A stretch of DNA of 22,317 nt, taken from NCBI GenBank assembly GCA_964357255.1, contig CAYHKQ010000042.1, positions 1-22,317 of the forward strand, written 5' to 3'. The notes beneath the pieces were generated by a model. The model had not been told where the DNA came from, made no database searches, and was given only the letters and a program-made list of their open reading frames with translations. Positions 3,001-21,471 of the stretch are shown here, piece after piece. The stretch's first letter is position 1, and each line of letters starts with the position of its first letter. Origin of the DNA: an uncultured Elusimicrobia bacterium. Its GTDB lineage: Bacteria; Elusimicrobiota; Elusimicrobia; JACQPE01. The position numbers were made by a program, and so were the translations under genes.

Positions 3001-3653
3001 GCCGCGGTGGACCAGATGGGTCCGCGCGTGACAAAACGCCAGGCGATTTGGCCGGTGGCGCCGCGAAAACTCTTGACGGAATAATCAAACGATCCGGCGA
3101 AAACCCGCCATTCGTTATTGCCCATGCGAGCCGTGGCCGGCGTGGACAGGACATGGCCGTTATAAGGGTTGGCCCAGACCCATTGAGAGAAAGGATGGAT
3201 GGCCTGAACCTCGTTGCCGGACGTGGTGCCCCCGATGATTTCGGATGTTCCGTCGCCGTTTAAGTCCGCGAGATTGATTGAGGAGTGAGCCTCGTCGTTT
3301 TCAGTGTCTTTCCACCAGATGACGTCCCCTTTGGAGGAAAACAAGAACCATCGGCCGAGCGGCCCGTCGGATGTGGTATCGCCTAAGGGATGGTATTCTT
3401 CATTGCCCGTGGCGACTTCCAGGCCCGGGTAATCCGGCCGCAATTCGCCGATCGCCGCGGATGGCCCGGGAATCATGCGGTAGTCGCCGCCGAAGACGAT
3501 TTTGAATTGGTAGTTCCAGTTATTGACAAGGATATTGTTGTAGGTGGCGCCGGTGGAGACGAGCGCTAAAAGGGGGGAGCGGTTGGGCAGATAAGCGCTT
3601 AGGCAGATCAGTGAAATAAGGAAATTCCTTAAAACACTCGACCGCTTATTCAT
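1..3653 (-). CDS. Very large secreted surface protein, >1,217 aa inside the window and still open at window start. It has an N-terminal signal peptide (MNKRSSVLRNFLISLICLSAYLP...). At least five FG-GAP/VCBS-like Ca-binding beta-propeller repeats follow (D-x-[DN]-G-D-G-x-x-E with Y-C-L blade ends). Several Ig-like/Fn3-like beta-sandwich repeats come after them. The 3' end lies beyond the window.
   Basis: I translated the minus strand by hand from the ATG at 3653..3651. The frame with codon tops at positions congruent to 2 mod 3 reads stop-free to position 1. Examples of the repeats are IGDTDGDGAKEVLIGSDDGYLYCL, LADLNGDGRREVIIGT, AIGDTDGDGKPEIVFGSGDGKVYCL and VVGDVDGDGKLEIFF. The supplied ORF track shows no ORF in this frame and no other ORF longer than 178 aa anywhere in 1..3650. 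That fits a start-to-stop finder skipping an ORF that has no stop. The ATG overlaps the upstream gene's stop (ATGA). Confidence 0.75.
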   Translation of the reverse strand, partial: MNKRSSVLRNFLISLICLSAYLPNRSPLLALVSTGATYNNILVNNWNYQFKIVFGGDYRMIPGPSAAIGELRPDYPGLEVATGNEEYHPLGDTTSDGPLGRWFLFSSKGDVIWWKDTENDEAHSSINLADLNGDGTSEIIGGTTSGNEVQAIHPFSQWVWANPYNGHVLSTPATARMGNNEWRVFAGSFDYSVKSFRGATGQIAWRFVTRGPIWSTAAIGDTDGDGAKEVLIGSDDGYLYCLGASTGAFKWKVNAGESLRASAALADLNGDGRREVIIGTPWISSGTLLALDGATGATRWSFATGGSIISSPAIGDTDGDGKPEIVFGSGDGKVYCLNSDGSLKWSRDLGSPIYSSPALAARGPGPRLDVYIITFAGYLTLLQGDNGAFLDSFKGSYTSVSSPVVGDVDGDGKLEIFFQDRFGDINSMRGDRFWSVKDTLSNVPPFSRPWPMFRANPAHTGVYADAQADQFLVKSDLEPPHISHTPMAATVADNKNLIIEAKITDNASVAIAGLTFWQDGTSKYYTIPMFALGNAKFRALIPGYYLQSLKTKKVNYFIDATDEAGNYPPTGQTPGSLAAPNAFSVYDVTLPTATIGTPMPNQIIGKNTPLGGNFQPQDVAKIQMSIKENSGGLSWGPSGWQASANWFNAQTIKSITSAYDSFYGYWQHSISTVTLESAKSYELKVRAIDSSENVQNPVPSVSFTADNNGPNVTFDLPKNGATYYNQISLSGNITDNLAGLWYMYFIIKDLDNSQIWSGSNWQSHYAYIKPALTGNAWTLETPAWIPGHHYEVLTYAIDKAYNWSTMTTKFFISSTKPPSPQNFTSAWNWTDKDELEMNLSWQALEDTALIGSYRVYCLDPGATAWRLAREIPVGFSGTLEENAPAETIRVTKDAKGRLTYARRRSSMDWPIGVSKAYVVSVSINGSLGDPTVSKSLVQAGPLDIAWVKGAPPIAAWTGPLENQSGRMNFKFFNQPSSGPVAEKTIENFTGSSAVINPLDIGMATATLKLGATYYLQAVKTTKNSEGAVSVSMSRAKRAFIFSSIAPVSKILWPLENGVVKTLPAISGTAQGKGTAISLVEIQIQSSSSTPSIWTSGGWGGINWLTALGKETWTLALESATLNDGLYSAVSRAKDSQGVQEENLYPAHFIFDATPPQSNLSLKGVMGLNNFYISSVTASLAAIDATSGVEAAFYRTKAMAEFIPYIQALGIGEGETTL

Positions 3654-4228
3654 AGTTTTTGCCCTTGTTTTTCCGGTCCGTTTTTTTTGTTTTGATCGGG
3701 TTGGGGCGAGCGCAGGAGCTTGTCCTTGCTCATGCGGTCAATTTCGAGTTCGAGTTTATGCTCTTTAAAAAATCGCCTTTCTTTTCTTGTGCCTCGGTCG
3801 TTAAGGCCGGGGATGCTATCCTCGATCAATTCCTCAAGAGCGTGAATGGCCGGGTCCGCGTCGCCATGATATTCGGCTTCTTCTTGCGGCGAAGCCTCGG
3901 CTTGCATGGCATCGAGGAGATCGAGGGCCGGGGTCGCGGCCTTGGACTTGTCCGTTTCGATTTTGCCGCCTTGATTTTCGACCCAAAGCTCTAAAGAGCC
4001 GTTCGCGGGCGCTCCAACCGCGGTCGCGCCGGCTGGGCTTTCTTGGGGCGAAGCGCCGGCCGGCATGATGTCTTTTTCCTGCGGGACCGTGACTTGTGGA
4101 GGGTTTTGAGCGGCTATTGGCGCGGACTCATCAAGAGCCACAACGTCCGGGCGCAGCCCAATCAACGTGAGCGATCCCAAGAAAAGAAAAAAATTTGTTT
4201 TTCGTCCTCGATTTTCAGTTTTTTCCAT
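3650..4228 (-). CDS. Acidic, Pro/Ala/Glu-rich low-complexity protein of 192 aa with an N-terminal hydrophobic signal/anchor (FFLFLGSLTLIGL) and a Lys-rich C-terminus. Hypothetical periplasmic or anchored accessory protein.
   Basis: ORF from the track. A GGGGAGA Shine-Dalgarno-like sequence sits about 8 nt upstream of the ATG at 4228. Its stop TGA (3650..3652) overlaps the ATG (3651..3653) of the giant downstream gene. It is nested between the beta-barrel gene and the giant gene on the same strand. Confidence 0.55.
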   Translation of the reverse strand: MEKTENRGRKTNFFLFLGSLTLIGLRPDVVALDESAPIAAQNPPQVTVPQEKDIMPAGASPQESPAGATAVGAPANGSLELWVENQGGKIETDKSKAATPALDLLDAMQAEASPQEEAEYHGDADPAIHALEELIEDSIPGLNDRGTRKERRFFKEHKLELEIDRMSKDKLLRSPQPDQNKKNGPEKQGQKL

Positions 4229-4242
4229 TGTGTCATTCTCCC

Positions 4243-5226
4243 CTAAAATTTAATCGTCAAATTCATTCGATGCGCATTGCCAAGAAGTCCGAACGGTTGA
4301 AACGAGTAATCCAAGCCGATAGCGCCGAGCGCTAAGCCGAATCCGGCTCCGAGTCCGCCTAAGGCCGAAGCTCCCGCGCTTTCTAATCCGTGATAGCCCA
4401 GGCGCAGGGCCAAGGGACGGCCGGAGGATTCTCCTGCGGCCGGCGCGAGTTCTACGCCAGCCGCCAGTTCGTGGGATTTTTCGCCGGGCCTCATTTTGTA
4501 ATCCGCGGCGAGGCGGATGCCGCCGAGATTGAAACCCGCTCCCAGGGCGTAAGTGAGCGGCAGTTTTGAGACCTCGTTGATGAATCGCAGGCCCGGTCCC
4601 GCGTTTTGAATGGCCGCGCCAAACGTCAGTTTTTTGTTGGCCGCCAGCATAATTCCAAAATCGCCGAAGTAGGTGGCGGCCTTGTAGCCAGCGAGGGACT
4701 CTTGAAAATAGGAAAGTTTGAATCCGGCGAGAATTCTCGGATGAATTTGCCGGGCCATGCCCAGGCTAACGGCCAAGTCGCCGGCTGAAAAGTCATCGCT
4801 CAGTCGTCCCGCGCTGTCGCGTCCCGTGAATTGTCCCATGTCCATGCGGTAGAAGCTTAACCCCAGAACGCCGGCTTTGCTAGGAAGAGCCAGCGCGGCA
4901 AATTGCATTTGAGAGCCCTCAAGCCATTCGCTGTGCATTAAGGAAAGCATGGGCCGTTTTATTCGGGCCAAGCCGGAGGGATTGTACGCGAGGGCCAGCG
5001 GGTCATTGGCCAGGGCCGTGTAGGCGCCGCCCAGGGCCGAGGGCCGGGCGCCGATGCCGGCTAAAAGGGATTCAGCGCCATTGGTTCCGGCGGCATACAG
5101 GGGCAAGGTGAATGAGGCAATAAAAGAAAGAAGAGAAGATAACCCGGCTAGAAACCGGGACTTCGTCCCTTCCTTAAAGTACGAAACGCTCGTTTCGTTT
5201 TGTGACCGTCTATTACCTAGGCTCAT
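4243..5226 (-). CDS. PorV/PorQ-like outer-membrane beta-barrel protein. The N-terminal motif GARPSALGGAYTALANDPLALAYNPSGLA resembles the PorV-family signature G-x-R-A-x-G-M-G-G-A...NPAGLA. The protein ends in a C-terminal Phe (LTIKF). The track ORF extends to 5364, but that N-terminal 46 aa are Arg-rich and lack a signal peptide. Met47 at 5226 gives an n-region plus an h-region (FLAGLSSLLSFIASFTLPLYAAG).
   Basis: Track ORF 4243..5364. Motif recognition and the alternating hydrophobic beta-strand pattern with a terminal aromatic residue. The stop TAG at 4243..4245 lies 14 nt before the next gene. The start is uncertain between 5226 and 5364. Confidence 0.65.
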   Translation of the reverse strand: MSLGNRRSQNETSVSYFKEGTKSRFLAGLSSLLSFIASFTLPLYAAGTNGAESLLAGIGARPSALGGAYTALANDPLALAYNPSGLARIKRPMLSLMHSEWLEGSQMQFAALALPSKAGVLGLSFYRMDMGQFTGRDSAGRLSDDFSAGDLAVSLGMARQIHPRILAGFKLSYFQESLAGYKAATYFGDFGIMLAANKKLTFGAAIQNAGPGLRFINEVSKLPLTYALGAGFNLGGIRLAADYKMRPGEKSHELAAGVELAPAAGESSGRPLALRLGYHGLESAGASALGGLGAGFGLALGAIGLDYSFQPFGLLGNAHRMNLTIKF

Positions 5227-5448
5227 TGGCTTGCATTCGGTTCGTCCAAGCTCGCCATCGGCAGCCAGGCTACCCGAGCGTTTACACCGGCCGCTTTGTG
5301 GGGAGTCCAAAGCGGACTGGAGTTTTGTCTGTCGGGCCCTTGGCTTCGCGCCCCTGCCTTTCAAAGATCAGGTTTGCCGTTTCGTGGCGGTCACTTTACG
5401 ACAACCATTAACTTTCACCCCAAAACGGGTTTGCGTCAAGGGGGGTCG

Positions 5449-10634: not shown

Positions 10635-10778
10635 GAAAGCTCGTAACTACCCAGGTCCCCTTGGATTCGTCATACCGGCGAAAGCCGGTATCCAGTGAAG
10701 GCAAATCCAAAGAAGGCCTGGATTCCGGCTTTCGCCGGAATGACGGGGAAGGGGAACCTGAGTAGTTACGAAAGCTCG
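10635..10778. mobile_element. MITE-like palindromic element, about 126 bp core (10644..10769), flanked by a 9-bp direct repeat GAAAGCTCG (10635..10643 and 10770..10778), a putative target-site duplication. Terminal inverted repeats are GTAACTACCCAGGTCCCC and GGGGAACCTGAGTAGTTAC. Internal twin hairpins are TACCGGC-GAAA-GCCGGTA (GNRA tetraloop) and TTCCGGC-TTTC-GCCGGAA.
   Basis: Read from the sequence. It starts 1 nt after the FecR-gene stop. Translating across it gives the spurious N-terminus WIPAFAGMTG of track ORF 10695..11189, a peptide signature I recognise from repeat-derived ORFs in other genomes. Confidence 0.5.
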
Positions 10779-10805
10779 ATAATTTATAATATTAGCGAGA
10801 AGCTG

Positions 10806-11189
10806 ATGATTAAAAAATTAGCAATCATGGCGTTGATCCTTGGGGTCAGCCAAGCGAGCGCTTGTTTGCTCCAATGCCAAGGCATGAGCAGCCATCAAAA
10901 TCGCCGGCCACAAACTTCATCCGCGCATCATTGCTGTCCTAATTCCAAGCGGTCCAAACAAGTTCCTTCTCACCCCGGAGCTGTTTGTTGCCTGGTAAAA
11001 TTTCAATCTCAAGATTCAACCCTGAAAGTCGCTTCGTTTCAAAAGACCGATATCGTTTGGTTGCCGCAGAGTAGCGGCCCGGATTCGGCCCAAGTGTTTC
11101 GCGGCCCGGTCTTGGAATCCGTTCTTCCTCAAAAAATTCCCAAACCTCTTGTTTGGGCTATTCGCCTTCTTCGTTCTCCTCCAGCATAA
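10806..11189 (+). CDS. Small secreted Cys/His-rich protein of 127 aa. Signal peptide MIKKLAIMALILGVSQASA, then CLLQCQG, HHCCP and AVCC motifs. Possible periplasmic metal-binding or redox protein. The track start at 10695 is an artefact of reading through the MITE.
   Basis: In-frame ATG at 10806 followed by a canonical signal peptide. Cys/His clustering. It sits between two MITE-like elements just upstream of the cus-like operon. Whether the gene is real is uncertain. Confidence 0.35.
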   Translation: MIKKLAIMALILGVSQASACLLQCQGMSSHQNRRPQTSSAHHCCPNSKRSKQVPSHPGAVCCLVKFQSQDSTLKVASFQKTDIVWLPQSSGPDSAQVFRGPVLESVLPQKIPKPLVWAIRLLRSPPA

Positions 11190-11263: not shown

Positions 11264-11400
11264 TGTTTACACGACTCATGCAAAATACGCCCGCTCATGG
11301 TGAGCTTGTCGAACCATGAGCCTGACCAAGGGATTGGCTCATCCTTCGACAAGCTCAGGATGAGCGGGTTCAATCAATTTGCATGACTCGTATTGTTTAT
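11264..11400. mobile_element. Second, unrelated MITE-like element (core 11271..11391). Terminal inverted repeats are ACGACTCATGCAAA and TTTGCATGACTCGT (1 mismatch). It is flanked by a direct repeat TTGTTTA (11264..11270 and 11393..11399). Internal twin hairpins have 8-bp stems (GCTCATGG/CCATGAGC and GCTCATCC/GGATGAGC) and 13-nt loops that are exact reverse complements of each other (TGAGCTTGTCGAA and TTCGACAAGCTCA).
   Basis: Read from the sequence. Translation gives the spurious ORFs 11158..11373 and 11339..11674 containing LSLSKDEP and FDKLTMSG, peptide signatures of a widespread repeat family. Confidence 0.5.
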
Positions 11401-11423: not shown

Positions 11424-12674
11424 TTGAAGATTATTCTAGCGCCAGCGTTTGTGGTCATGCTTATTGTTCCGGCTATGGCTGAGGAGACTGTTTTCATTTC
11501 GACGGGATCCCTTACATTGAAGGAAGCCTTGGCCGAGGCCCGCGAGCGCAGTCCTGAAATTTTAGCCGCCCGTAAATTTTGGGAGGCGCTTGCGAGCAGG
11601 CCGGTTGGGGCGGCCGCGCCGGAGAATCCCCGTCTGGATATTGAAAGAATGTACGCGAGCGGCGGAAGGAACATTATAACAGGGGCCGAGGAAAAAAATT
11701 TTATGCTCAGCCAGGAGATTCCTTTCCCGGCAAAACTTCATTTGAGAAAGCGGGTGGCTTTAAAAGCCGCGGCCATGGCGGAGCAAGGGTATTTGGCCAA
11801 GATCAGGGACGTGCTGGCCCGGGTCCGTTCGATCTATGCCATGCTTTATCTTTCACACAAAAATTTGGAATTGTTTAACGAGAATATTGAGTTGTTGCGC
11901 CGTTTTGCCAAGGTGGCTGAGTCAAAATACGCGGCCGGCCGCGCGAGCCAATCGGACGTCCTTAAGGCCCACGTGGAATTGAGCAAGATGCTTAATATGC
12001 TCGTGGTTGTTAATCAGGACAAGGAGGCGGCCGGGTTCATGCTCAACGCGCTTTTGGGCAGGGCCCCGGAGTCGGCATTAGGGGTTCCGGTTGATCTTGA
12101 TTCAAAAAAATTGGACTACAGTCTCGACGAGCTTGAGCGCCAAGCCTTGCAATCGCGTCCCCAACTGCTCGAAGCGGCGCTCGGCGTGGAGCGGGCCGCC
12201 GGCGCGCTTTCATTGGCCAGATCGGAATTTTTTCCTGATTTCATGCTTCAATACCGCCAGCGCCGCGATTCTATGCGTGGAAGTTCTCAGGACGCGATGA
12301 TTGGATTTACGATCCCTCTTTGGTTTTGGAAGCCCGCGGCCATGGCGGCCGAGGCCAAGTCGGAGTTGCAAATGTTTCAGGCCCAACTGCAGGCCACCAG
12401 GCTCATGACCCTGTCCGAGGTCCGCGCTTCCTTTGTCCGGGCCCGGACAAGCCAGCGCCTGATTGAACTTTATCGCAACGGCGTCTTGGCGCAGGCCGAG
12501 GGGGCGCTTAAAGTGGTTGAGGCGAGTTATCAGGCCGATAAGGCGAGTTTTCTGGACTTGGTGGACGGACAGCGCGCATTTTTGAATTTTAAGCTCGAAT
12601 ACTACCAATACATCGCCGAGTACGAACAACGCCTCGCGGAGCTAGAGCGCGCTGTTGGAAAGGAGTTGCTATGA
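11424..12674 (+). CDS. cusC: Outer-membrane efflux protein of 416 aa (TolC-like outer-membrane factor, CusC/CzcC type). TTG start 4 nt after a GGAGG Shine-Dalgarno sequence, followed by a signal peptide.
   Basis: Signal peptide MKIILAPAFVVMLIVPAMA. Two repeated alpha-helical coiled-coil/beta segments typical of OEP-family proteins. Its stop overlaps the next gene's ATG (ATGA at 12671..12674). Confidence 0.8.
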   Translation: MKIILAPAFVVMLIVPAMAEETVFISTGSLTLKEALAEARERSPEILAARKFWEALASRPVGAAAPENPRLDIERMYASGGRNIITGAEEKNFMLSQEIPFPAKLHLRKRVALKAAAMAEQGYLAKIRDVLARVRSIYAMLYLSHKNLELFNENIELLRRFAKVAESKYAAGRASQSDVLKAHVELSKMLNMLVVVNQDKEAAGFMLNALLGRAPESALGVPVDLDSKKLDYSLDELERQALQSRPQLLEAALGVERAAGALSLARSEFFPDFMLQYRQRRDSMRGSSQDAMIGFTIPLWFWKPAAMAAEAKSELQMFQAQLQATRLMTLSEVRASFVRARTSQRLIELYRNGVLAQAEGALKVVEASYQADKASFLDLVDGQRAFLNFKLEYYQYIAEYEQRLAELERAVGKELL

Positions 12675-14059
12675 GAAAAAATAAACTTGTGATTTTAATC
12701 CTTGCGGTTTTTATCTTTGGAGCCGGCGGCCTGGTTGTGCGGTTTCGCCGTGGAGCAAGTCATGGCGCTGGAGTCGCCCCAGAGGCGGTCCGTTATTATT
12801 GTCCGATGCATCCTACTTATACCTCGGATCGCCCCGGCGCTTGTCCGATTTGCAACATGTCTCTTGTGCCCATGGAGACGCCGGATGCTTCCGGGGCCGC
12901 GGCTCAGAATCCTGCCGGTTCCGGAAAAAAAGTCTGCCTGCTTCACAACTGCAACATGGCCAATTGCCCCATGGAGTTAGAACTCAAACCAGGCCAAAAG
13001 GTGACATGTCCCGTATGCGGGACTCATGTAGAGGAGGCGCAAGAGCTTGCTCAAGGAAAAATTCTCTATTACCGTCATCCCGTGCGGCCGGAGCTAACGT
13101 CCCCGTCGCTCAAAAAGGATGAGATGGGAATGGATTACGTGCCTGTCTATGCCGAGAAACAAGACGTTCGGGTTCCGGTCGGGGGCCAAGCCGGCGTGAC
13201 TTTGACGGCGGAGCGCCGCCGGCTCATTGGCATGGAATCGCAGGCATTGGTAAGACGTGATTTAAAATTTACGGTCAGGGCCAGCGGCCGCGTGGCTTAT
13301 GATCCTGATCTTTACAACGCCATTGCGGAATATCGGGAGGCTGTGCGGACTAAAGAACAGGTCAAGGAGAATTCCTGGCCCGATGTCCAGGATCGTTCCC
13401 AAGCTTTAGTGAGGGCTTCCCTTTTGAGATTGAGACAGTCGGGTTTATCTGAGTCTCAAATTGAAGATATTGCCCGGAGCACGGGGGCGCAGTCAACTAA
13501 TCTCCTTTTGGGAGGTTCCGAAGAAAGCGTCTGGGTCTATGCCCAGATTTATGAGTATGAGATTGGCTTTGTCAAATCCGGCCAGAGAGCCGAAATTACA
13601 ACCCCGGCTTATCGGGGACGGAAATTTTACGGCACGGTTAAAGCGGTGGACCCTATCCTTTCCGCGGAAACCAGGTCTCTTAAAGTCCGTATCGAGGTTC
13701 CCAATCCCGAGGGGCTCTTGAAGCTGGAAATGTATGTCAACGCGGAGATCCGCGTGGACATTGGATTTAAGCTTGCCCTTCCCGAGGAGGCGCTTATGGA
13801 GACGGGCGAGCGTCAACTCGTTTTTATTGACCTTGGCCAGGGGCGCATTGAGCCAAGAGAGGTGCGCATCGGCCAAGAGGCGAAGGGTTATTATGAGGTC
13901 ATCTCCGGCATCCGCGAAGGCGAGAGGGTCGTGACATCGGCCAATTTCCTCATTGACTCCGAGTCGAAACTGAAGGCCGCCATTTCAACCTCGAAGGACA
14001 AGGCCAAGGGCAAGGGCGACTCCCAACCCGCCGATTCTTTTTCGGAACACAGGCATTGA
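12671..14059 (+). CDS. cusB: Efflux RND periplasmic adaptor (membrane-fusion protein) of the CusB/SilB type, 462 aa. N-terminal TM anchor. It has a heavy-metal-binding motif YYCPMHPTYTSDRPGACPICNMSL, an additional Cys cluster CLLHNCNMANCPMELELKPGQKVTCPVCGTHV, and the degenerate YYRHPVRP...KDEMGMDYVPVY motif. The C-terminus is His-rich (SEHRH).
   Basis: The CPMHP...CPICxM motif is characteristic of Cu(I)/Ag(I) adaptor N-domains. Beta-barrel/lipoyl-like segments follow (VKAVDPILSAETRSLKVRIEVPNPEGLLKLEMYVNAEI). Translational coupling with cusC. Confidence 0.85.
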   Translation: MRKNKLVILILAVFIFGAGGLVVRFRRGASHGAGVAPEAVRYYCPMHPTYTSDRPGACPICNMSLVPMETPDASGAAAQNPAGSGKKVCLLHNCNMANCPMELELKPGQKVTCPVCGTHVEEAQELAQGKILYYRHPVRPELTSPSLKKDEMGMDYVPVYAEKQDVRVPVGGQAGVTLTAERRRLIGMESQALVRRDLKFTVRASGRVAYDPDLYNAIAEYREAVRTKEQVKENSWPDVQDRSQALVRASLLRLRQSGLSESQIEDIARSTGAQSTNLLLGGSEESVWVYAQIYEYEIGFVKSGQRAEITTPAYRGRKFYGTVKAVDPILSAETRSLKVRIEVPNPEGLLKLEMYVNAEIRVDIGFKLALPEEALMETGERQLVFIDLGQGRIEPREVRIGQEAKGYYEVISGIREGERVVTSANFLIDSESKLKAAISTSKDKAKGKGDSQPADSFSEHRH

Positions 14060-14066
14060 GGCTTTT

Positions 14067-17000
14067 ATGGTCAGAAAACTTATAGCTTGGTCGGCGCACA
14101 ACAAGTTCCTGGTGATGGCCTTGACGGCCGTTTCCATGGTGGCGGGCTGGTATTGCATGAAGAACATTCGGCTCGACGCGATTCCGGACCTCTCGGACAC
14201 GCAGGTCATCGTCTATTCCCGATGGGATCGCTCTCCCGACATCATCGAGGACCAGGTCACTTATCCGATTATCACCGCTCTCCTGGGAGCTCCGAAGGTC
14301 AAAGCTGTGCGCGGTTTTTCCGACTTCGGCTTCTCCTACGTCTACGTCATTTTCGAGGATGGCGCCGACATCTACTGGGCGCGTTCGCGCGTGCTGGAGT
14401 ACCTGAGCAAAATTCTGCCGCAGATGCCCGATGGTGTGCGCACCGAGCTTGGCCCTGACGCTACGGGCGTGGGCTGGGTTTACCAATACGCCCTTGTCGA
14501 CAAGACGGGCCGGCACAGCCTCGCCGACTTGAGATCCTTCCAGGATTGGACGTTACGCTATTACTTGCAGTCAGTTCCGGGAGTGGCCGAGATCGCTTCT
14601 ATCGGAGGCTTCCAGAAACAATATCAGGTGCAGGTTGACCCCAATGCGCTGGTCGCCTATCGCATCCCGCTCGGCCGAGTCGTTGACGCCATCCGCGACG
14701 GCAATAACGACGTTGGCGGACGGCTTGTCGAGTTCGCGGGCACGGAATACATGATCCGCGGCCGCGGCTACGCTAAGTCGGTCGAAGACATCGAGCAGAT
14801 CGTCGTCGGCCGCGACACGCGCGGCACGCCTGTCCTGGTCAAGAGCATAGCCAAGGTGACCTTGGGCCCTGATATCCGGCGTGGCATCGCTGATCTTGAC
14901 GGCGAGGGCGATGTTGTCGGAGGCATCGTGGTGATGCGCCATGGCGAGAACGCCCTCAACGTCATCAAAAGGGTCAAGGCGCGCCTCGATGAGGTCGGGC
15001 CCTCGTTGCCGGAAGGAGTCGAGATCGTCAAGACCTACGATCGCTCCGAGCTCATCGAAGGCGCCATTGCCACCTTAAAGGATGAGCTTTTTATGCAGAT
15101 GTTGTTGGTCAGCCTTGTCATCCTTGTTTTTCTCTGGCACATTCCCTCCGCGATTGTGCCGATCGTGACGATTCCGATTTCGACGGTGCTGGCCTTTATT
15201 CCTTTGTACTTCATGGGCGTGAGCGCCAACATCATGTCTATCTCAGGGATCATGCTGTCCATCGGCGTGCTCGTGGACGGCTCTATGGTGGAGGTGGAGA
15301 ATGCTTATAAGAAGCTACAACTTTGGGTCGCGGGAGGGCGCAAAGGCGATTTTCACGCCGTGCGCCTGGAGGCGTTGCAGGAGGTCGGGCCCGCGGTGTT
15401 TTACTCTCTAATGGTCGTGGCCGTCGCTTTCTTTCCGATTTTCGCGCTCGTGGACCAGGAGGGCAGGCTCTTTAAGCCGTTGGCCTACACAAAGAACCTG
15501 ACAATGCTCCTGGCGGCGTTTCTCGCCCTGACCCTGGATCCGGCTGTGCGCATGATGTTCTCGCGCATGAACTATTTTGTGTTCAAGCCGAATTGGCTCG
15601 CGTGGACCATCAACCAGATTACCGTCGGCCGCTATTACGCTGAGGAAAAGCACCCGATCAGCAAGGGTTTGTACCGCCTCTACGACCCCGTCTGCCGCTG
15701 GGTGTTGGAGCGGCCGTGGAAGGTGATTGGGGCCGCCGTACTCATCACCCTGGCAACCGTGCCGATTTACCTCAAGCTGGGTTCTGAGTTCATGCCTCCG
15801 CTCAACGAGGGCACGATTTTGTACATGCCGACGACCTTGCCGGGGATATCGGTCACTCAGGCCGCGGACTTGCTTAAGAAGCAGGATGAGATCCTTAAAA
15901 GCTTTCCGGAGGTGGAGCGGGTTTTCGGTAAGGCGGGCCGCGCCCAGACCTCGACCGACCCGGCCCCTTTTTCAATGATGGAGACCACCGTAATCCTCAA
16001 GCCAATGGACCAGTGGAGGAAAAAAGAACGGTGGTATTCCCTGTTCCCGGAGTTCTTCCAGAAGCCATTGCGGCGTGTCTGGTGGGACAGGCTCACCTGG
16101 GACGAACTGGTCGCCGAGATGGACAAGCGCATGAGGTTCCCGGGCGTGACCAACGCCTGGACCATGCCGATTAAGGCGCGCATTGATATGCTGACTACCG
16201 GAGTGCGCACACCCATTGGTATTAAGGTCTACGGGGCGGACCTAGCGCAGATCGAGGCGGTGGGGCAGGAGATCGAAGCGGTCCTTCGCGAGGTTCCGGG
16301 GACGCGCTCCGTCTATGCCGAGCGCACTGCGGGCGGCTATTTCGTTGACTTCCGGCTCAAGCGCGAACAGTTGGCGCGCTATGGTTTATCCGTCAAGGAG
16401 GTCGAGATGGTCATCATGTCAGCCATTGGCGGTGAAACAGTCACGACCACCATCGAAGGCCGAGGGCGCTATAGCGTCAACGTCCGCTACCCGCGCGAGC
16501 TCCGGGACAATCTCCCCAAGCTCAAGCGGGTGCTCGTGGCCACAATGGACGGCGCGCAGATTCCCCTGGCTCAGTTGGCCGACATCGAATTGACGATGGG
16601 CCCGGCGATGATCCGCAACGAGAATGGGATGCTGGCCGGTTACGTCTACGTGGACGTTGCCGGACGCGACATTGGAGGCTATGTCGAGGAAGCCAAGAAG
16701 AAGGTCGCTTCGGTGGTGGACCTTCCTGTCGGCTACGCCATTGGGTGGAGCGGCCAGTATGAAAACATGGTGCGCGTGCGCGAGCGCATGACCCTGGTCC
16801 TTCCTTTGACCCTGGTGATCATCGTCCTGCTCATGTACATGAACACCAAGTCCTGGATCAAGACGGGGATCGTAATGCTGGCGGTGCCATTTTCGCTCAT
16901 CGGCGCCTTCTGGGGGTTCTATCTCCTCGACTACAACCTCTCGGTGGCGGCCTGGGTGGGCATGATCGCGCTCATGGGCCTTGACGCTGAGACGGGCACC

Positions 17001-17357
17001 TTCATGTTGCTCTACCTCGATCTGGCCTACGCCGACGCGGTGCGCGAGGGCCGAATGCGCAACTACGAAGACTTAAAGGAGGCGGTGATGCACGGCGCGG
17101 TCCGGCGCATCCGCCCTAAGATGATGACGGTGTTCACCGATTTTCTCGGCCTGATGCCGATCATGTGGTCGCTCGGCACGGGGGCGGATCTCATGAAGCG
17201 CATTGCCGCGCCCATCATTTTTGGGCTGTTCACGAGTTTTGCGCTCGAGCTTGTGGTCTACCCGGCGATTTTTCTCCTCTGGAAGTGGCATGGCGATATG
17301 CGAAAGGGAACGGTGGACGTAAATCAACTTCCGGTCCCGGAGATTCGGGAGTATTGA
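14067..17357 (+). CDS. cusA: Heavy-metal efflux RND transporter of the CusA/CzcA family (HME-RND), 1,096 aa, with 12 TM helices.
   Basis: Length, TM pattern and conserved HME-RND blocks. The TM4 proton-relay block reads SIGVLVDGSMVEVEN (S-D-E). This matches the monovalent Cu/Ag type A-D-E more closely than the divalent D-D-E type. Confidence 0.93.
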   Translation: MVRKLIAWSAHNKFLVMALTAVSMVAGWYCMKNIRLDAIPDLSDTQVIVYSRWDRSPDIIEDQVTYPIITALLGAPKVKAVRGFSDFGFSYVYVIFEDGADIYWARSRVLEYLSKILPQMPDGVRTELGPDATGVGWVYQYALVDKTGRHSLADLRSFQDWTLRYYLQSVPGVAEIASIGGFQKQYQVQVDPNALVAYRIPLGRVVDAIRDGNNDVGGRLVEFAGTEYMIRGRGYAKSVEDIEQIVVGRDTRGTPVLVKSIAKVTLGPDIRRGIADLDGEGDVVGGIVVMRHGENALNVIKRVKARLDEVGPSLPEGVEIVKTYDRSELIEGAIATLKDELFMQMLLVSLVILVFLWHIPSAIVPIVTIPISTVLAFIPLYFMGVSANIMSISGIMLSIGVLVDGSMVEVENAYKKLQLWVAGGRKGDFHAVRLEALQEVGPAVFYSLMVVAVAFFPIFALVDQEGRLFKPLAYTKNLTMLLAAFLALTLDPAVRMMFSRMNYFVFKPNWLAWTINQITVGRYYAEEKHPISKGLYRLYDPVCRWVLERPWKVIGAAVLITLATVPIYLKLGSEFMPPLNEGTILYMPTTLPGISVTQAADLLKKQDEILKSFPEVERVFGKAGRAQTSTDPAPFSMMETTVILKPMDQWRKKERWYSLFPEFFQKPLRRVWWDRLTWDELVAEMDKRMRFPGVTNAWTMPIKARIDMLTTGVRTPIGIKVYGADLAQIEAVGQEIEAVLREVPGTRSVYAERTAGGYFVDFRLKREQLARYGLSVKEVEMVIMSAIGGETVTTTIEGRGRYSVNVRYPRELRDNLPKLKRVLVATMDGAQIPLAQLADIELTMGPAMIRNENGMLAGYVYVDVAGRDIGGYVEEAKKKVASVVDLPVGYAIGWSGQYENMVRVRERMTLVLPLTLVIIVLLMYMNTKSWIKTGIVMLAVPFSLIGAFWGFYLLDYNLSVAAWVGMIALMGLDAETGTFMLLYLDLAYADAVREGRMRNYEDLKEAVMHGAVRRIRPKMMTVFTDFLGLMPIMWSLGTGADLMKRIAAPIIFGLFTSFALELVVYPAIFLLWKWHGDMRKGTVDVNQLPVPEIREY

Positions 17358-17375
17358 TCATCATGGAAATGATCT

Positions 17376-18263
17376 ATGCCTTTTAAATTTAAGCGCGAAG
17401 AGATCCGTAGGAGGAATCACCGTCGTCCTTGGCATCCACGCAACGCCGCTGTGATGCTTGCCTTGTTGAGCGCGGGGTTGGGGCAGGCTTTTGCTGAACA
17501 GGCGCATCATCAGGCCGGCGCCGCTACGGTGCGGGCGGGTCAGTGGATCGCTCAGCCCTGGGAGACAGGCGAGGAACGTTTGCGCTGGCGCATATTCGGT
17601 TCATATTTGTCCTCCCAATCCCGATTCGACGCGCTCGGCGATCGAGTGGCGCTTGAGAATAACGGACGTTATTCTAACTTTGGACTGAACGCCTTTTTGG
17701 AGTATGCGTTGAACCCGCGTTGGAGCATTGCCGGACTGGCTCCGTTGCAATGGTCCAGGCTTTCGGATGACTTGAGCCGTGAGCGTTGGGTCAATGTCGG
17801 AGATACGTATGGCTGGGTCCGCCGCTCTATTGAAGGGAATGCGCGCTGGAGCGCCGGCGCGCTGGCTGGAATCAAGATTCCGGGAAATTACCGGCCGGGC
17901 GCCGCTACGGGGGACCGTCAAACGGACATGGAGGCTCAAGGGTTTTTGGGGCACGGTCTTGGCCGCGGCAGTTTCGCATCTTTAGGTTCCGGATATAGGG
18001 TCCGTTTCGGGAGTCCATCTGATGAAATTTTTTTTAACGCGCAGTTCGGCTGGAACCCCGGGAACGGATGGCTTCTCGTGCCGGCCGCCGCCGGCGCCCT
18101 GGGCGTCGGAGGGGGCGTTCCTAAAGACTTCCTTAATGCCGGGGTTACTATTTTTCGTTCCCTGCGGGGCCCATGGAGACTTCTAGGCTCCTATAATCGT
18201 GTTATTGCGGGCAAAAATACGGTGAGCGCCGGCGTCTGGGCGCTAGGAGTTTCATATCAATAG
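17376..18263 (+). CDS. Putative outer-membrane beta-barrel protein of 295 aa from the first ATG. The signal peptide is more plausible from Met27 at 17454 (MLALLSAGLGQAFA|EQAHH). It is Gly-rich with an alternating hydrophobic pattern. Family undetermined.
   Basis: Track ORF directly downstream of cusA with an 18-nt gap. The amphipathic beta-strand periodicity and the aromatic-rich C-terminal strand (VWALGVSYQ) suggest an outer-membrane barrel. An AGGAGG-like sequence at 17409..17414 lies between the two candidate starts. Confidence 0.5.
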   Translation: MPFKFKREEIRRRNHRRPWHPRNAAVMLALLSAGLGQAFAEQAHHQAGAATVRAGQWIAQPWETGEERLRWRIFGSYLSSQSRFDALGDRVALENNGRYSNFGLNAFLEYALNPRWSIAGLAPLQWSRLSDDLSRERWVNVGDTYGWVRRSIEGNARWSAGALAGIKIPGNYRPGAATGDRQTDMEAQGFLGHGLGRGSFASLGSGYRVRFGSPSDEIFFNAQFGWNPGNGWLLVPAAAGALGVGGGVPKDFLNAGVTIFRSLRGPWRLLGSYNRVIAGKNTVSAGVWALGVSYQ

Positions 18264-18297
18264 AGCTACCCATGTCGCACAGACCCGGGCGCCAACA

Positions 18298-19836
18298 ATG
18301 GCGGCTATGGCCATAGTCCTTTGGATAGCGCCAAGTGTCCTGATTTTTGCCCAGGAACACGCAGGGTTCCGCCATGGAGAGTCCGCAATGGCCAAGGTTC
18401 CTTCGCAACATTCTGACGATGAAATTGCGGCCAAAGAGTTTGGCTTGAATCTTGAAACCTGGAGCGGACTCACGCGCATGGGCCATGCCGTGGCAACCTG
18501 GAGGATGAAACCCATCCCGGAAAGGCGAATCATTCTTTTCGATTTTTCCTATCGTCGCTCGTTGGCCTTAAATAAAGCGCAAGAGTTATTGAAAGCCGGA
18601 GAAGATGCCGATTGCGAAGAGATCCGCTTTTTAAGGATTTATTTGGGAGATGGGGCCATGCGCCCGATACTTCTGAAACACGAAAAAAGCGAAGCCCATC
18701 TGGCGCATGAACACCCCGGCAAACCTCCGCTGGCCGGGGAAGGACAACGTCCCGCAGAGCCGGTAGTTAAGGATATTAAGCTCTGCCGCATCAACTGGGA
18801 CGGCCCAAAGGAGCCGACAATTCCTTCTCCTGTTCCGCTTCCTGGGGGAGGATTCGATTCTCACGAAGGCCATCGCGGTCATTCTTCGGGAGGCATCACT
18901 CGCGATCATGGGAATTCCAGGCACGAAGACCATCGTAGAGGTTCGGGAGGAGGTGGCCCATCGCAGGGTCATGAAAATTCTCATCGCCAAGGTTCCGCCG
19001 GCGGACCAGATGATGCTCGTCATGGCCCAGGCGCTTCTCGTTCTGAGGGCGCCCAGCATAACTCAAGCCACGGCCAATCTCTCAGCATCGCGCCTGCTAC
19101 GAGCGCCGGCGCTTCTCATGTTCACGCGGCTAAGGGGGGATCGAACGCGATGTCGAGTCCTCGGCATAACAGCGAGCCCGCTAGCCTTCATGGCGATCTG
19201 GCTCATCCCCAACCAGTTTATGGGCGCTCCTACGAAAGACCGGTTGCTGGTTTTTCAAAAAACCATGCCCATGTTCCATCGTTAATGAATTCTCCGGCTA
19301 AGGCCGGCCAAGAGGGAGATCATCGTTTGCATTCATCTTCTGATTACAGCGCTATTGTTGACCATGGAGTTCATCAAATATCGCATGAAGCAAGTTCGCC
19401 TCAAGGGAGTTTCCAGCGCCACGCGCGTCATTCTCAGGCAACTCAAGACCCTGGCCTTCCTCACCATGCCGTGGCTCATGGGACGCCAGATTCAAATTTT
19501 CCAAGCGCTGTCCATGAAAGCGTTTTTGGCCATCGTGCCGTAGATGACCATCAGGAACGTCACAAAAGCCTTGCGGCAAGGCAAACTAATGGCGCCCCTG
19601 CAGATATTGCCGCAAGCCACGTTCATCACAATGATCACTCAACCCACCAAAAGCAAGACATTGAACGCCCTGCCAAGGAAAACTTATCGCCAGGCTCGGA
19701 TGTTGATCAAAAGGGAAATATCCCTCCGTGGCCCTGGAAGGGGGCTGTCTTGTTTGCCTCTGTAGCCTATGCCGGAGCGCTTTGGAAGCGGCGTAAAGTA
19801 GGGCCGCAATTCAGAAATTCGCAAAGGAGGAAATGA
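18298..19836 (+). CDS. Histidine-rich protein of 512 aa. It has a hydrophobic N-terminal signal-like segment (AMAIVLWIAPSVLIFA|QE) and a roughly 150-aa globular N-domain. A roughly 300-aa Gly/Ser/His-rich low-complexity region follows. By my hand count it holds about 37 His, with no Cys and few Met. The C-terminal TM anchor (GAVLFASVAYAGALW) carries a basic tail (KRRK). Putative periplasmic, membrane-tethered metal-binding or metal-buffering protein.
   Basis: Track ORF with degenerate H-x-x-S-x-H / GH / HxH repeats. An alternative start at 18388 (ATG 7 nt after GGAGAG) would remove the signal segment. No recognisable enzyme motif. Confidence 0.7.
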   Translation: MAAMAIVLWIAPSVLIFAQEHAGFRHGESAMAKVPSQHSDDEIAAKEFGLNLETWSGLTRMGHAVATWRMKPIPERRIILFDFSYRRSLALNKAQELLKAGEDADCEEIRFLRIYLGDGAMRPILLKHEKSEAHLAHEHPGKPPLAGEGQRPAEPVVKDIKLCRINWDGPKEPTIPSPVPLPGGGFDSHEGHRGHSSGGITRDHGNSRHEDHRRGSGGGGPSQGHENSHRQGSAGGPDDARHGPGASRSEGAQHNSSHGQSLSIAPATSAGASHVHAAKGGSNAMSSPRHNSEPASLHGDLAHPQPVYGRSYERPVAGFSKNHAHVPSLMNSPAKAGQEGDHRLHSSSDYSAIVDHGVHQISHEASSPQGSFQRHARHSQATQDPGLPHHAVAHGTPDSNFPSAVHESVFGHRAVDDHQERHKSLAARQTNGAPADIAASHVHHNDHSTHQKQDIERPAKENLSPGSDVDQKGNIPPWPWKGAVLFASVAYAGALWKRRKVGPQFRNSQRRK

Positions 19837-19839
19837 CCT

Positions 19840-20214
19840 ATGTTCCAACTCATGAAATCAAAAACACTGCTTAGCGCAATGTTGTTAACGATGGCTCTGG
19901 GATTGGCGGCGATGGCCGCTAACGACTCATACAAGAAAAAGCCCGGCCATCACCCCGCATGCCCCATGAAAATAGAAGGGGCGGAAGTCCGCGTGGATAA
20001 TATTGAATCCGGCGTGGTGGTTCATATAACAGCCGAGGATCCGGCTGTCGTCAAAAACATTCAGGATACGGCTTCCCGAATGGTTCAACATCATTCCCAG
20101 AAAAAGGGAGGGGCTAAAAAGGAAATTTATTCCTGCCCCATGAATGACTACTCCGGATCCCAGACCAAAGATGGCCGTTGCCCTAAATGCGGCATGAATC
20201 TTGAGAAAAAGTAA
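19840..20214 (+). CDS. Small secreted protein of 124 aa with a standalone heavy-metal-binding domain. Signal peptide, N-terminal HHPACPM, and a C-terminal YSCPMNDYSGSQTKDGRCPKCGMNL (the same Y-x-CPM...G-x-CP-x-CGM-x-L motif as the CusB N-domain). Candidate periplasmic Cu(I)/Ag(I) metallochaperone.
   Basis: Motif identity with the adaptor metal-binding motif in 12671..14059. Signal peptide MFQLMKSKTLLSAMLLTMALGLAAMAA. It lies 4 nt after the His-rich gene. Confidence 0.7.
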   Translation: MFQLMKSKTLLSAMLLTMALGLAAMAANDSYKKKPGHHPACPMKIEGAEVRVDNIESGVVVHITAEDPAVVKNIQDTASRMVQHHSQKKGGAKKEIYSCPMNDYSGSQTKDGRCPKCGMNLEKK

Positions 20215-20257
20215 GAGCAGGGGGTTGTGATGAGAGGAAATAAATTGAAAGGAGCAA

Positions 20258-20449
20258 ATGACGATGAAAAAATGGAATAGACGCGGAGAAGCGAGCATAG
20301 GCATAATTCTCATCATGGGGGCCATGATGCTGGGCATGTTCTTGTTGCATAAGTTTAAAGGGAGTCGCTCAAGCGATCATTCTGATGGCAAGTCGGGCGC
20401 CGCCCAGGAGCCTGCGGAGCATAAGTCGAGCGAAGGGGGACACCATTAA
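20258..20449 (+). CDS. Small single-pass membrane protein of 63 aa with a charged, Ser/His-containing C-terminal tail ending HH.
   Basis: Strong Shine-Dalgarno sequence AAAGGAG about 6 nt upstream of the ATG. One TM helix (SIGIILIMGAMMLGMFLL). Last gene on this strand before a convergent gene. Confidence 0.45.
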   Translation: MTMKKWNRRGEASIGIILIMGAMMLGMFLLHKFKGSRSSDHSDGKSGAAQEPAEHKSSEGGHH

Positions 20450-20526: not shown

Positions 20527-21471
20527 CTATACGGATATGCCCCAGATGCTTTTGACGCCGAGGCCGATGACGTAGGTGACGCCTACGGCTGTGGCGAGGA
20601 TGACAAAATTGACCGCAATTCGGCGCTTGATGTTCATTCCGGAAAGGAACGCGAGGATGTAGGAGATCAGCGCCACCATGCAAGCCGAACTGGCCAAAGA
20701 CGCGAGGACGTTTTTGGCTCCCAAGAGCACCGGCATCACAGGGATTATCGCGCCGACAAGATAGCTCGCCCCGACTATCGCTCCCGTGGCAAGCGGGTTT
20801 TCGCCGTCGTCTTGAGGTTTCGCGTCGGGATCGAGGAAACGCTCTTTGGCGGCATCTATTCTTTTGACCTCGCGTTCCGAAGTGGCCGCGACAAAGGCTC
20901 CGGCCGCCATGGAAAACGCTCCGGCCGCCGCCACCGTCGAGCTCGCGATTAAAATTGCGGACGGTTCGTTGAAAGCCGCGAAAAATCCGCTCACAGCCCC
21001 GAGGATTTCTACTAAGCCGTCGTTTAAGCCGAGGAATATGCTTCTGATTCGTTCGGGATTAATTTTTCTTTGCGTTAACTGGGAGACGATTTGATCCTCG
21101 TGTTTGAGTTCGTCGGCAAGGATTTCTTTGACGGCTTCCCCAAGGGGGGCATTCTTGTTGGTTTCCCAGATGTCGAGGTACTTGCGGATTCCGTAAATTT
21201 CAATGGCTTCGAGAACCAAATGGATGCCGGTTGACCGGAACAATCGGCACGCCAAGACAAGAAGGCGCAGTTTGATGCGTTGCGGCATGTCCAGGTTTTT
21301 AACCTTGACGCCGGTAAAATTTTCCCAAAAGGCATGATGCTTTTGTTCGATCGGGATGAGTTCTTCGAGAATTTTGCGCGGCCCCGGGGCGCTGACCCTG
21401 GAGAGTTCTTTGTAGAGCGTCAGGTCGAACAGTTCGTCCGCGACGAGGCTATGGGCCAGTTTGGGATTCAT
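20527..21471 (-). CDS. mbfA: Ferritin-like (erythrin) - VIT1/CCC1 fusion protein of 314 aa. A membrane-bound ferritin-like Fe/Mn transporter of the MbfA type.
   Basis: The N-terminal four-helix ferritin-like region carries Glu/His ligand motifs (ADELFDLTLYKE...EQKHHAFWEN...LEAIEIYG...LADELKHED). The VIT1 signature is ERIRSIFLGLNDGLVEILGAVSGF, and a C-terminal TM bundle follows. The ATG overlaps the upstream gene's stop (ATGA at 21468..21471). Confidence 0.85.
   Translation of the reverse strand: MNPKLAHSLVADELFDLTLYKELSRVSAPGPRKILEELIPIEQKHHAFWENFTGVKVKNLDMPQRIKLRLLVLACRLFRSTGIHLVLEAIEIYGIRKYLDIWETNKNAPLGEAVKEILADELKHEDQIVSQLTQRKINPERIRSIFLGLNDGLVEILGAVSGFFAAFNEPSAILIASSTVAAAGAFSMAAGAFVAATSEREVKRIDAAKERFLDPDAKPQDDGENPLATGAIVGASYLVGAIIPVMPVLLGAKNVLASLASSACMVALISYILAFLSGMNIKRRIAVNFVILATAVGVTYVIGLGVKSIWGISV

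Follow-up and report, generated by a model that had tools for sequence, protein, structure and literature searches.

A Cus-type heavy-metal efflux operon with four putative copper-handling envelope genes in an uncultured Elusimicrobiota bacterium

The 22,317-bp stretch analyzed here (contig CAYHKQ010000042.1; hereafter, the window) is an entire contig of a metagenome-assembled genome (MAG) labelled Elusimicrobiota bacterium. Between positions 11424 and 20449 it carries seven plus-strand open reading frames (ORFs) separated, in order, by −4, 7, 18, 34, 3 and 43 nt, as an earlier reading of the letters alone (the sequence-only reading) had described. As judged from sequence comparisons, ORF1–ORF3 encode a Cus-type pump of the resistance-nodulation-division (RND) kind with a non-canonical adaptor and channel, and the four genes that follow the pump gene (ORF4–ORF7, the tail) probably help to handle copper. 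We favor, at even odds, the reading of a tripartite CusCBA-type Cu(I)/Ag(I) efflux operon in which four envelope proteins are added to the pump; these would come from a lineage-specific pool of copper accessories that are combined differently from locus to locus. Each of the tail genes has relatives in further loci of the cus type or with metal-handling genes, and the accessory pool across these loci comprises HMBD, YHS, His-rich, Haem_bd and DUF2231 proteins, small Met-rich peptides and an outer-membrane barrel with a His-His-Gln (HHQ) N-terminus. The clade of HHQ barrels, which includes ORF4, and the ORF6 family are the most interesting pieces of the locus. The roles proposed below for the tail proteins are inferred from motifs, topology and synteny.

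The core that the sequence-only reading had recognized as a channel, an adaptor and a pump was identified as such by Pfam, NCBIfam and PDB comparisons (Table 1). ORF3 was assigned to the Cus type because it passed the TIGR00914 cutoff, because its phmmer score in the PDB was far higher for CusA (965 bits) than for ZneA (465 bits), and because it keeps both the three-methionine cleft site (M573, M623 and M672, in YMPT, SMM and DML; phmmer alignment to 3t51_A) and the proton-relay residues D405, E939 ("DAETG") and K984 ("RPK"). These residues fit the monovalent-type pump that had been claimed, although the "S-D-E" label given to the relay is non-standard. Among the transmembrane methionine pairs, M403/M410 alone was compared: transmembrane helix 4 reads GVLVDGSMVEVEN in ORF3 and GAMVDAAIVMIEN in CusA, with M403 replaced by Leu and M410 by Glu, and the cytoplasmic-entry methionines are thus not kept at these positions.

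The other two core proteins stand apart from their Cus namesakes. ORF1 scored 89 bits with the TolC family model TIGR01844, under its cutoff, and 12 bits with the CusC model PRK09837 (cutoff 598), which places it outside CusC. It contains no Cys at all and therefore has no lipobox, indicating that it is not a CusC-type lipoprotein. Its orthologues in three of the compared loci (L003, L005 and L007) are 52–54% identical. ORF2 begins with a membrane anchor, followed at residues 42–67 by an HMBD with the motif CPMHP...CPICNM (PF19335, 47.0 bits against a gathering cutoff of 23.6). Its scores with the CusB model NF007303 (111.5 bits, cutoff 390) and with the CzcB model (106 bits) were both below cutoff, and by these comparisons ORF2 is a heavy-metal efflux (HME) adaptor and not a CusB equivalog. 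Residues ~89–116 of ORF2 (window 12935–13030) hold a second Cys-rich stretch, CLLHNCNMANCPM...CPVCG, to which Pfam gave just a weak zinc-finger match; this stretch might bind metal, too.

Table 1. Features of the operon and its upstream region in the window
Feature	Description	Coordinates	Strand	Basis
ORF1	TolC-type outer-membrane factor, 416 aa	11424..12674	+	Pfam OEP 1.8e-42; signal peptide
ORF2	HME-RND periplasmic adaptor, 462 aa	12671..14059	+	Pfam HlyD_D23 6.9e-31, HMBD 2.5e-12
ORF3	CusA-type heavy-metal RND pump, 1096 aa	14067..17357	+	TIGR00914 1021.6 bits, cutoff 701
ORF4	12-stranded outer-membrane barrel, 295 aa	17376..18263	+	locus tag AAB091_06405; mature N-terminus EQAHHQ
ORF5	His-rich protein, 512 aa	18298..19836	+	composition, hydropathy; tblastn/BLASTP homologue
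ORF6	secreted two-domain protein, 124 aa	19840..20214	+	HMBD match; conserved N-terminal domain
ORF7	single Met-rich transmembrane helix (IGIILIMGAMMLGMFLL), 63 aa	20258..20449	+	hydropathy/composition; AGGAG ribosome-binding site
Inverted repeat	nested, 121 nt, long hairpin	11271..11391	+	ends 33 nt before ORF1 start

ORF6 had been taken for a free-standing copy of the metal-binding motif of the adaptor. This holds for its last 28 residues, but a separate conserved N-terminal domain had been overlooked, a new three-strand-plus-helix domain with an invariant Cys41-Pro42. Behind a signal peptide and this domain, residues 97–124 form an HMBD (E 4e-7; 30.3 bits against the PF19335 cutoff of 23.6) with the putative ligands C99-x-M101...C114-P-K-C117-G-M119. 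The C-x-M...C-P-x-C-G-M pattern is invariant in seven family members. ORF6 has six homologues, and all four with a source name come from Elusimicrobia MAGs. ORF6 showed neither a Pfam match to CusF nor a fold match in the PDB, and a collection of sequenced plasmids held no relative of ORF6 or of ORF4.

We compared the window with the contigs or loci that hold relatives of the tail genes (numbered L001, L003 and so on); the contexts P0012, P0013 and P0014 were excluded because their contigs were too short. The ORF6 family lies downstream of a CusA-type gene at every locus with usable context. The ORF6-like gene is immediately adjacent to the cusA-type gene in L003/L004, L007/L008 and L009, comes after a Haem_bd gene and an ORF of 59 aa in L005/L006, and follows the barrel and YHS genes in L001; in the last two cases, as in the window, it lies within the RND gene run. 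No CusF-family match was recorded at any ORF6-bearing locus or in the window. HMBD modules in these loci are fused to varied partners. Upstream of the cus operon in L005 (208–1546), two further secreted HMBD proteins are encoded together with an ORF7-like peptide, and one of these two proteins is fused to a coiled-coil region resembling a 117-aa protein of L003.

ORF4 had been described as an unclassified outer-membrane barrel; the barrel was borne out, and the protein proved classifiable as a remote COG4313-like one. ORF4 gave no Pfam match at E <= 0.1 (PF13557 and CopB included) and no NCBIfam match. A word-indexed protein search returned just two relatives besides ORF4 itself, and an exhaustive profile search returned 445 cluster representatives at E <= 1e-3, five of them at E <= 1e-30. 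Among 61 aligned relatives, six matched PF13557 (Phenol_MetA_deg) and three a generic outer-membrane-protein barrel model. When the profile of the 61 family sequences was compared with all PDB sequences, the sole match was 4rl8_A (E 0.0028), and the structural model of ORF4 has the 12-stranded monomeric barrel fold of COG4313/Phenol_MetA_deg. By sequence and structure, ORF4 is a divergent COG4313-fold outer-membrane channel. The HHQ clade, with 13 members among the 61 inspected sequences, keeps the mature N-terminus A-E-[AQ]-[SA]-H-H-Q across ~25–50% identity, and this N-terminus is restricted to the clade; the other inspected members mostly start with "GAWT". Most proteins of this wider barrel family share the GAWT mature N-terminus and lack a Pfam assignment; they make up a large, uncharacterized group of ~270-aa outer-membrane barrels with only a loose tie to PF13557.

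Among the five contigs (the window counted) with at least 2 kb of sequence upstream of the barrel, four carry it shortly after cusA. The gene order in L001 is HMBD-adaptor, RND pump, barrel, two YHS proteins, a 117-aa membrane protein and an ORF6-like protein; in L018, an RND C-terminus 87% identical to that of the window precedes the barrel and a YHS gene. The barrel starts at most 45 nt from the cusA stop in both. In L019, a YHS-like gene separates the RND gene from the barrel, which lies 1.6 kb downstream of the RND gene and precedes three further YHS-like genes, and L002 has the barrel and then a YHS-like gene. Around the barrel of L010 are genes for YHS-like proteins, for an ORF7-like peptide and for a DUF2231 protein whose tail is His-rich. 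YHS-type metal-binding proteins flank the barrel in five loci (L001, L002, L010, L018 and L019). Relatives of ORF4 from Myxococcota had a cus-like operon 2.4–4.3 kb from the barrel in three of five genomes (L013, L014 and L017), with confirmed multicopper oxidases 0.5 kb from the barrel in L013 and 3.5 kb in L014. At the single GAWT-class locus used as a control, the barrel was surrounded by glycosyltransferase and thioredoxin genes, and no metal genes were found. The association of the HHQ clade with copper or efflux loci is thus recurrent across lineages in this small sample with its one-locus control. HHQ-clade barrels also lie near genes for MacB-type ABC exporters (FtsX plus ABC_tran) in L022/L023 and at L010 7914–10430, the latter with an additional FtrD-like gene; there are hints here of a link between HHQ barrels and efflux machines beyond RND pumps.

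The sequence-only reading had proposed that the tail would buffer metal in the periplasm and deliver it to the pump. The synteny speaks for this idea, since relatives of ORF4–ORF7 are found repeatedly in other contigs, within or beside CusA-type operons or clusters of metal-handling genes, but a fixed four-gene module was not found: content and order vary, and YHS, Haem_bd and DUF2231 proteins are swapped in. Furthermore, the ORF4 barrel may be a separate outer-membrane route rather than a feeder of the pump. The tail could instead serve copper acquisition or trafficking, with ORF4 admitting copper, ORF6 and ORF5 routing it to cuproenzymes, and the adjacency of the pump reflecting shared regulation of supply and overflow. 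An inward flux of Cu(II) has indeed been argued for PcoB, the outer-membrane barrel of a resistance operon, in the paper on its structure (PMC9210255), and the Haem_bd, DUF2231 and FtrD-like genes of related loci suggest redox or uptake functions. We nevertheless regard acquisition as unlikely, since relatives of ORF6 are linked to cusA and specifically to its 3' end, the related loci carry detoxification-type genes (CsoR, MerR, an ArsP/HMA permease and multicopper oxidases), and the Pfam-scanned ORFs of the window (27 in number) include no cuproenzyme gene. The same scan yielded no multicopper oxidase and no match to CusF, two-component or MerR-family proteins, the latter in agreement with the earlier statement that genes like cusF, cusRS and cueR are missing; SilE, also said to be missing, was ruled out solely by the lack of a Pfam or NCBIfam match to any tail protein.

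ORF5 has the His-rich composition that had been ascribed to it, and its hydropathy shows a signal-like and an anchor-like end. It contains 45 His (8.8%), about 40 of them within residues 186–450, and 1.6% Met. A signal-like hydrophobic N-terminus is followed by a conserved, helical-looking domain of ~105 aa (residues 35–139), a His/Gly/Ser-rich low-complexity region of ~265 aa with ~15% His, and a C-terminal segment, GAVLFASVAYAGALW-KRRK, whose hydrophobic stretch is consistent with a type I membrane anchor. ORF5 is therefore predicted to be an inner-membrane-anchored periplasmic protein. The C-terminus was also considered as a PEP-CTERM-type sorting signal, a candidate that was rejected with no NCBIfam model in support. 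A word-indexed protein search with ORF5 returned only ORF5 itself. In contrast to this, tblastn against the fetched loci revealed a homologue in a 591-codon frame of L005 (1506–3281), which is 44% identical over ORF5 residues 35–139 (E 3e-25, BLASTP/tblastn); the similarity extends into the Gly/His-rich region, and the C-terminus again has a hydrophobic stretch, here with the tail RRKGGRR. The frame abuts the channel gene of the cus operon in this Elusimicrobia MAG: its end overlaps the longest ORF of that gene by 4 nt and lies 72 nt ahead of the annotated start. Because it shares sequence, architecture and a cus-operon position with ORF5, we take ORF5 to be a real but rare gene family tied to cus operons. 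Neither protein belongs to a Pfam or NCBIfam family. The L005 frame (GCA_016234805.1, JACRNU010000019.1) is absent from the gene calls of its record, which place two short minus-strand genes inside it; this is probably a mis-annotation arising from the Gly/His-rich low-complexity region.

ORF7 is the membrane peptide that had been predicted, with one hydrophobic segment (residues 10–34) and a polar, His-containing C-terminal tail; Met makes up 9.5% and His 7.9% of its residues. ORF7-like peptides are encoded in L003/L004 (65 aa; 10729–10926 of L003), three genes downstream of the pump, at L005 1319–1546 (75 aa), just ahead of the ORF5 homologue, and at L010 1405–1647 (80 aa). No Pfam or NCBIfam match was obtained for ORF7 or for the L010 peptide, the sole relative scanned. 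More generally, no tail protein matched a well-characterized unrelated family in Pfam or NCBIfam; such matches would have spoken against the sequence-only reading.

Taken together with the core, these features suggest how the operon might work. ORF6 would serve as a soluble periplasmic Cu(I) carrier in place of the missing CusF; the matching HMBD of the adaptor could then take over the metal through ligand exchange. ORF5 would be a disordered His sponge tethered to the membrane and would buffer copper in the periplasm close to the inner membrane, by analogy with SilE/PcoE or with the His-rich N-terminal region of PcoB. ORF4 could provide a passive outer-membrane route for copper analogous to PcoB/CopB, and ORF7 may be a small membrane partner with a Met-rich helix, possibly of the pump. 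In the COG4313 channel whose structure has been solved, a stretch of ~14 residues at the N-terminus enters the lumen from the periplasm and plugs it (PMC4493636); the His-His segment of ORF4 might likewise lie in or under the lumen. A bolder proposal, which we hold tentatively and consider somewhat doubtful, is that the HHQ barrels are an unrecognized copper-channel family derived from the COG4313 fold, in which a His-His plug binds copper and gates the channel. With ORF6-type HMBD or YHS carriers, such barrels would form a TolC-independent second outer-membrane copper route beside CusCBA in diverse uncultured diderms, and ORF6 would represent a new class of metallochaperone that replaces CusF.

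Several observations weigh against an operon with copper-handling accessories. A close relative of ORF4 in L010 has no RND gene on its 12-kb contig, and the Myxococcota relatives in L015 and L016 have none within reach. The accessory set varies by locus, ORF4 being absent from L003, L005 and L007. The similarity among the ORF7-like peptides is short and partly driven by composition, and ORF5 has a single homologue, located upstream of the pump rather than downstream. ORF5 also has an atypical GC content at third codon positions (GC3) of 0.47 (0.55–0.78 in its neighbors), and neither ORF4 nor ORF5 is preceded by an obvious Shine-Dalgarno sequence. A consensus promoter and terminator scan of the window gave results at chance level, indistinguishable from those of shuffled sequences, and carries no information on transcription units. 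Residues 1–65 of the ORF4 model have a predicted local distance difference test (pLDDT) score <50, which leaves the placement of the His-His segment in the lumen only hypothetical, and the characterized COG4313 channels are linked to the uptake of hydrophobic compounds and not to metals (PMC4493636).

These points bear on two further explanations. ORF4 might be an ordinary COG4313 channel for a hydrophobic or otherwise unrelated small molecule, with ORF5 and ORF7 as fast-evolving, low-complexity envelope proteins without a metal role and ORF6 alone linked functionally to the pump. The substrates of the studied COG4313 members, the near-orphan status of ORF5, the weak similarity of ORF7 and the differing accessory sets all fit such an explanation, whereas the adjacency of RND and barrel genes in four independent contigs, the location of Myxococcota relatives near cus-like operons and multicopper oxidases, the conservation of a clade-specific His-His N-terminus across divergent sequences, and both the ORF5 homologue in another cus operon and the His content of the ORF5 low-complexity region do not; we consider it quite improbable. 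It is very improbable that ORF5 is a decaying or spurious frame in a real operon of six genes. The missing Shine-Dalgarno sequence, the low GC3, the lack of a database family and the uncalled L005 counterpart would agree with a spurious frame, but ORF5 is a 512-codon open frame in DNA of 55% GC that was annotated by NCBI, and the similar frame in a second MAG, which shares its architecture and is placed as a gene of an operon would be, argues against it. The reading of a Cus-type operon with a copper-handling tail is the best supported.

Within 11424–20449 no gap is large enough for a further gene, and the VIT1-family gene downstream of ORF7 (20527–21471) is convergent, indicating that the cluster ends after ORF7. 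Ribosome-binding sites of the GGAGG type precede ORF1, ORF6 and ORF7, and ORF1 starts with TTG, its GGAGG lying 5 nt ahead. The inverted repeat upstream of ORF1 has 33-nt arms with 88% complementarity and outer arms of 14 nt, and its RNA fold has an energy of −68.1 kcal/mol (z = −9.7). It reached the threshold of no Rfam family and has no second copy within the window; possibly it is a leader, an operator or a repeat element, and its membership in the system is uncertain.

Directly upstream of the operon, a plus-strand ORF (10695–11189) encodes a probable secreted protein with the Cys/His motifs CLLQCQ..., AHHCCPN and AVCC. In L007, the gene at 1610–2026, which precedes the channel gene, has a "GHCCDG" pattern resembling that in the window product; the two proteins showed no BLAST-level similarity and no Pfam match, and the window gene could be a further small metal-related gene. 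Farther upstream, the minus strand carries at 5257–5388 an aptamer of the c-di-GMP-I riboswitch family (Rfam RF01051), which scored 40.1 bits at a gathering threshold of 35. It sits at the 5' end of the minus-strand ORF 4243–5364, whose product looks like an outer-membrane protein and has a weak UPF0164 match; the true start of this ORF is probably downstream of the aptamer. The left 3.6 kb of the window were considered as non-coding, but this was rejected, as a single minus-strand frame of >1232 aa with a signal-like beginning (3–3698) runs off the left contig end there. Short ORFs in other frames within this region had no Pfam match, the large frame itself lying outside the scan.

To our knowledge, what is known of how copper is handled in the periplasm beside Cus-type pumps comes almost wholly from Proteobacteria and their CusF, SilE/PcoE and PcoB. 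The loci compared here suggest unrelated parts for the same task in other diderm phyla: an HMBD carrier instead of CusF, a His-rich polymer tethered to the membrane, and a barrel of the COG4313 fold whose N-terminal segment carries His-His. If this is true, it would mean a new family of outer-membrane copper channels and a new class of metallochaperone, would give a function to an uncharacterized clade within a family of ~445 cluster representatives, and would improve the annotation of metal resistance in metagenomes. The sequence-only reading had not recognized the arrangement as a described one, and we likewise found no description of it in the searchable literature, nor anything relevant on HMBD with CusB, YHS with CusA or copper efflux in Elusimicrobia. 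A literature match for PF19335 concerns an algal chaperone and is uninformative here.

Accessory genes are a common feature of heavy-metal RND operons. Like CusCFBA of Escherichia coli and the plasmid-borne SilCFBA, the window operon combines a channel, an adaptor and an RND pump, and ORF3 is nearer to CusA than to ZneA, with the cleft methionines and relay residues kept. Unlike these systems, it lacks CusF/SilF and CusRS/SilRS among the Pfam-scanned ORFs of the window, M403 and M410 are replaced in its pump, and four extra genes follow the pump gene. In contrast to CusC and CusB, its channel is of the non-lipidated TolC type and its adaptor bears an N-terminal Cys/Met HMBD. HMBD-type "TCPMHPEIR" motifs are known from Cu/Ag ATPases of the SilP/CueA type (PMC6387184).

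The closest parallel for ORF4 in a copper system is PcoB/CopB (PDB 7PGE), which like ORF4 is a small outer-membrane barrel encoded in a copper-resistance cluster with His residues before the barrel. PcoB/CopB is the partner of the multicopper oxidase PcoA. ORF4, by contrast, has no Pfam CopB match, and a multicopper oxidase was found only at two Myxococcota loci, L013 and L014, near the relative of ORF4. The His-rich, disordered N-terminus of PcoB, an outer-membrane copper barrel, is required for copper resistance (PMC12509749). From COG4313/Phenol_MetA_deg channels such as Pput2725 (PDB 4RL8), ORF4 differs in missing the Pfam model, in its HHQ N-terminus and in a metal-efflux context instead of one of aromatic or hydrophobic catabolism. 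ORF5 resembles SilE/PcoE in its His-rich low-complexity region, which is probably disordered, its predicted periplasmic location and its linkage to Cu/Ag efflux genes; unlike them it is Met-poor, has a predicted C-terminal anchor and a conserved, folded-looking N-terminal domain, and shows no sequence similarity. Its length is presumably about 3.5 times that of SilE. ORF6 has a fold and a motif (three-strand-plus-helix domain and HMBD ribbon) unrelated to those of CusF, but like CusF it is a small secreted protein that is encoded in the pump operon and offers Cys/Met ligands for soft metals.

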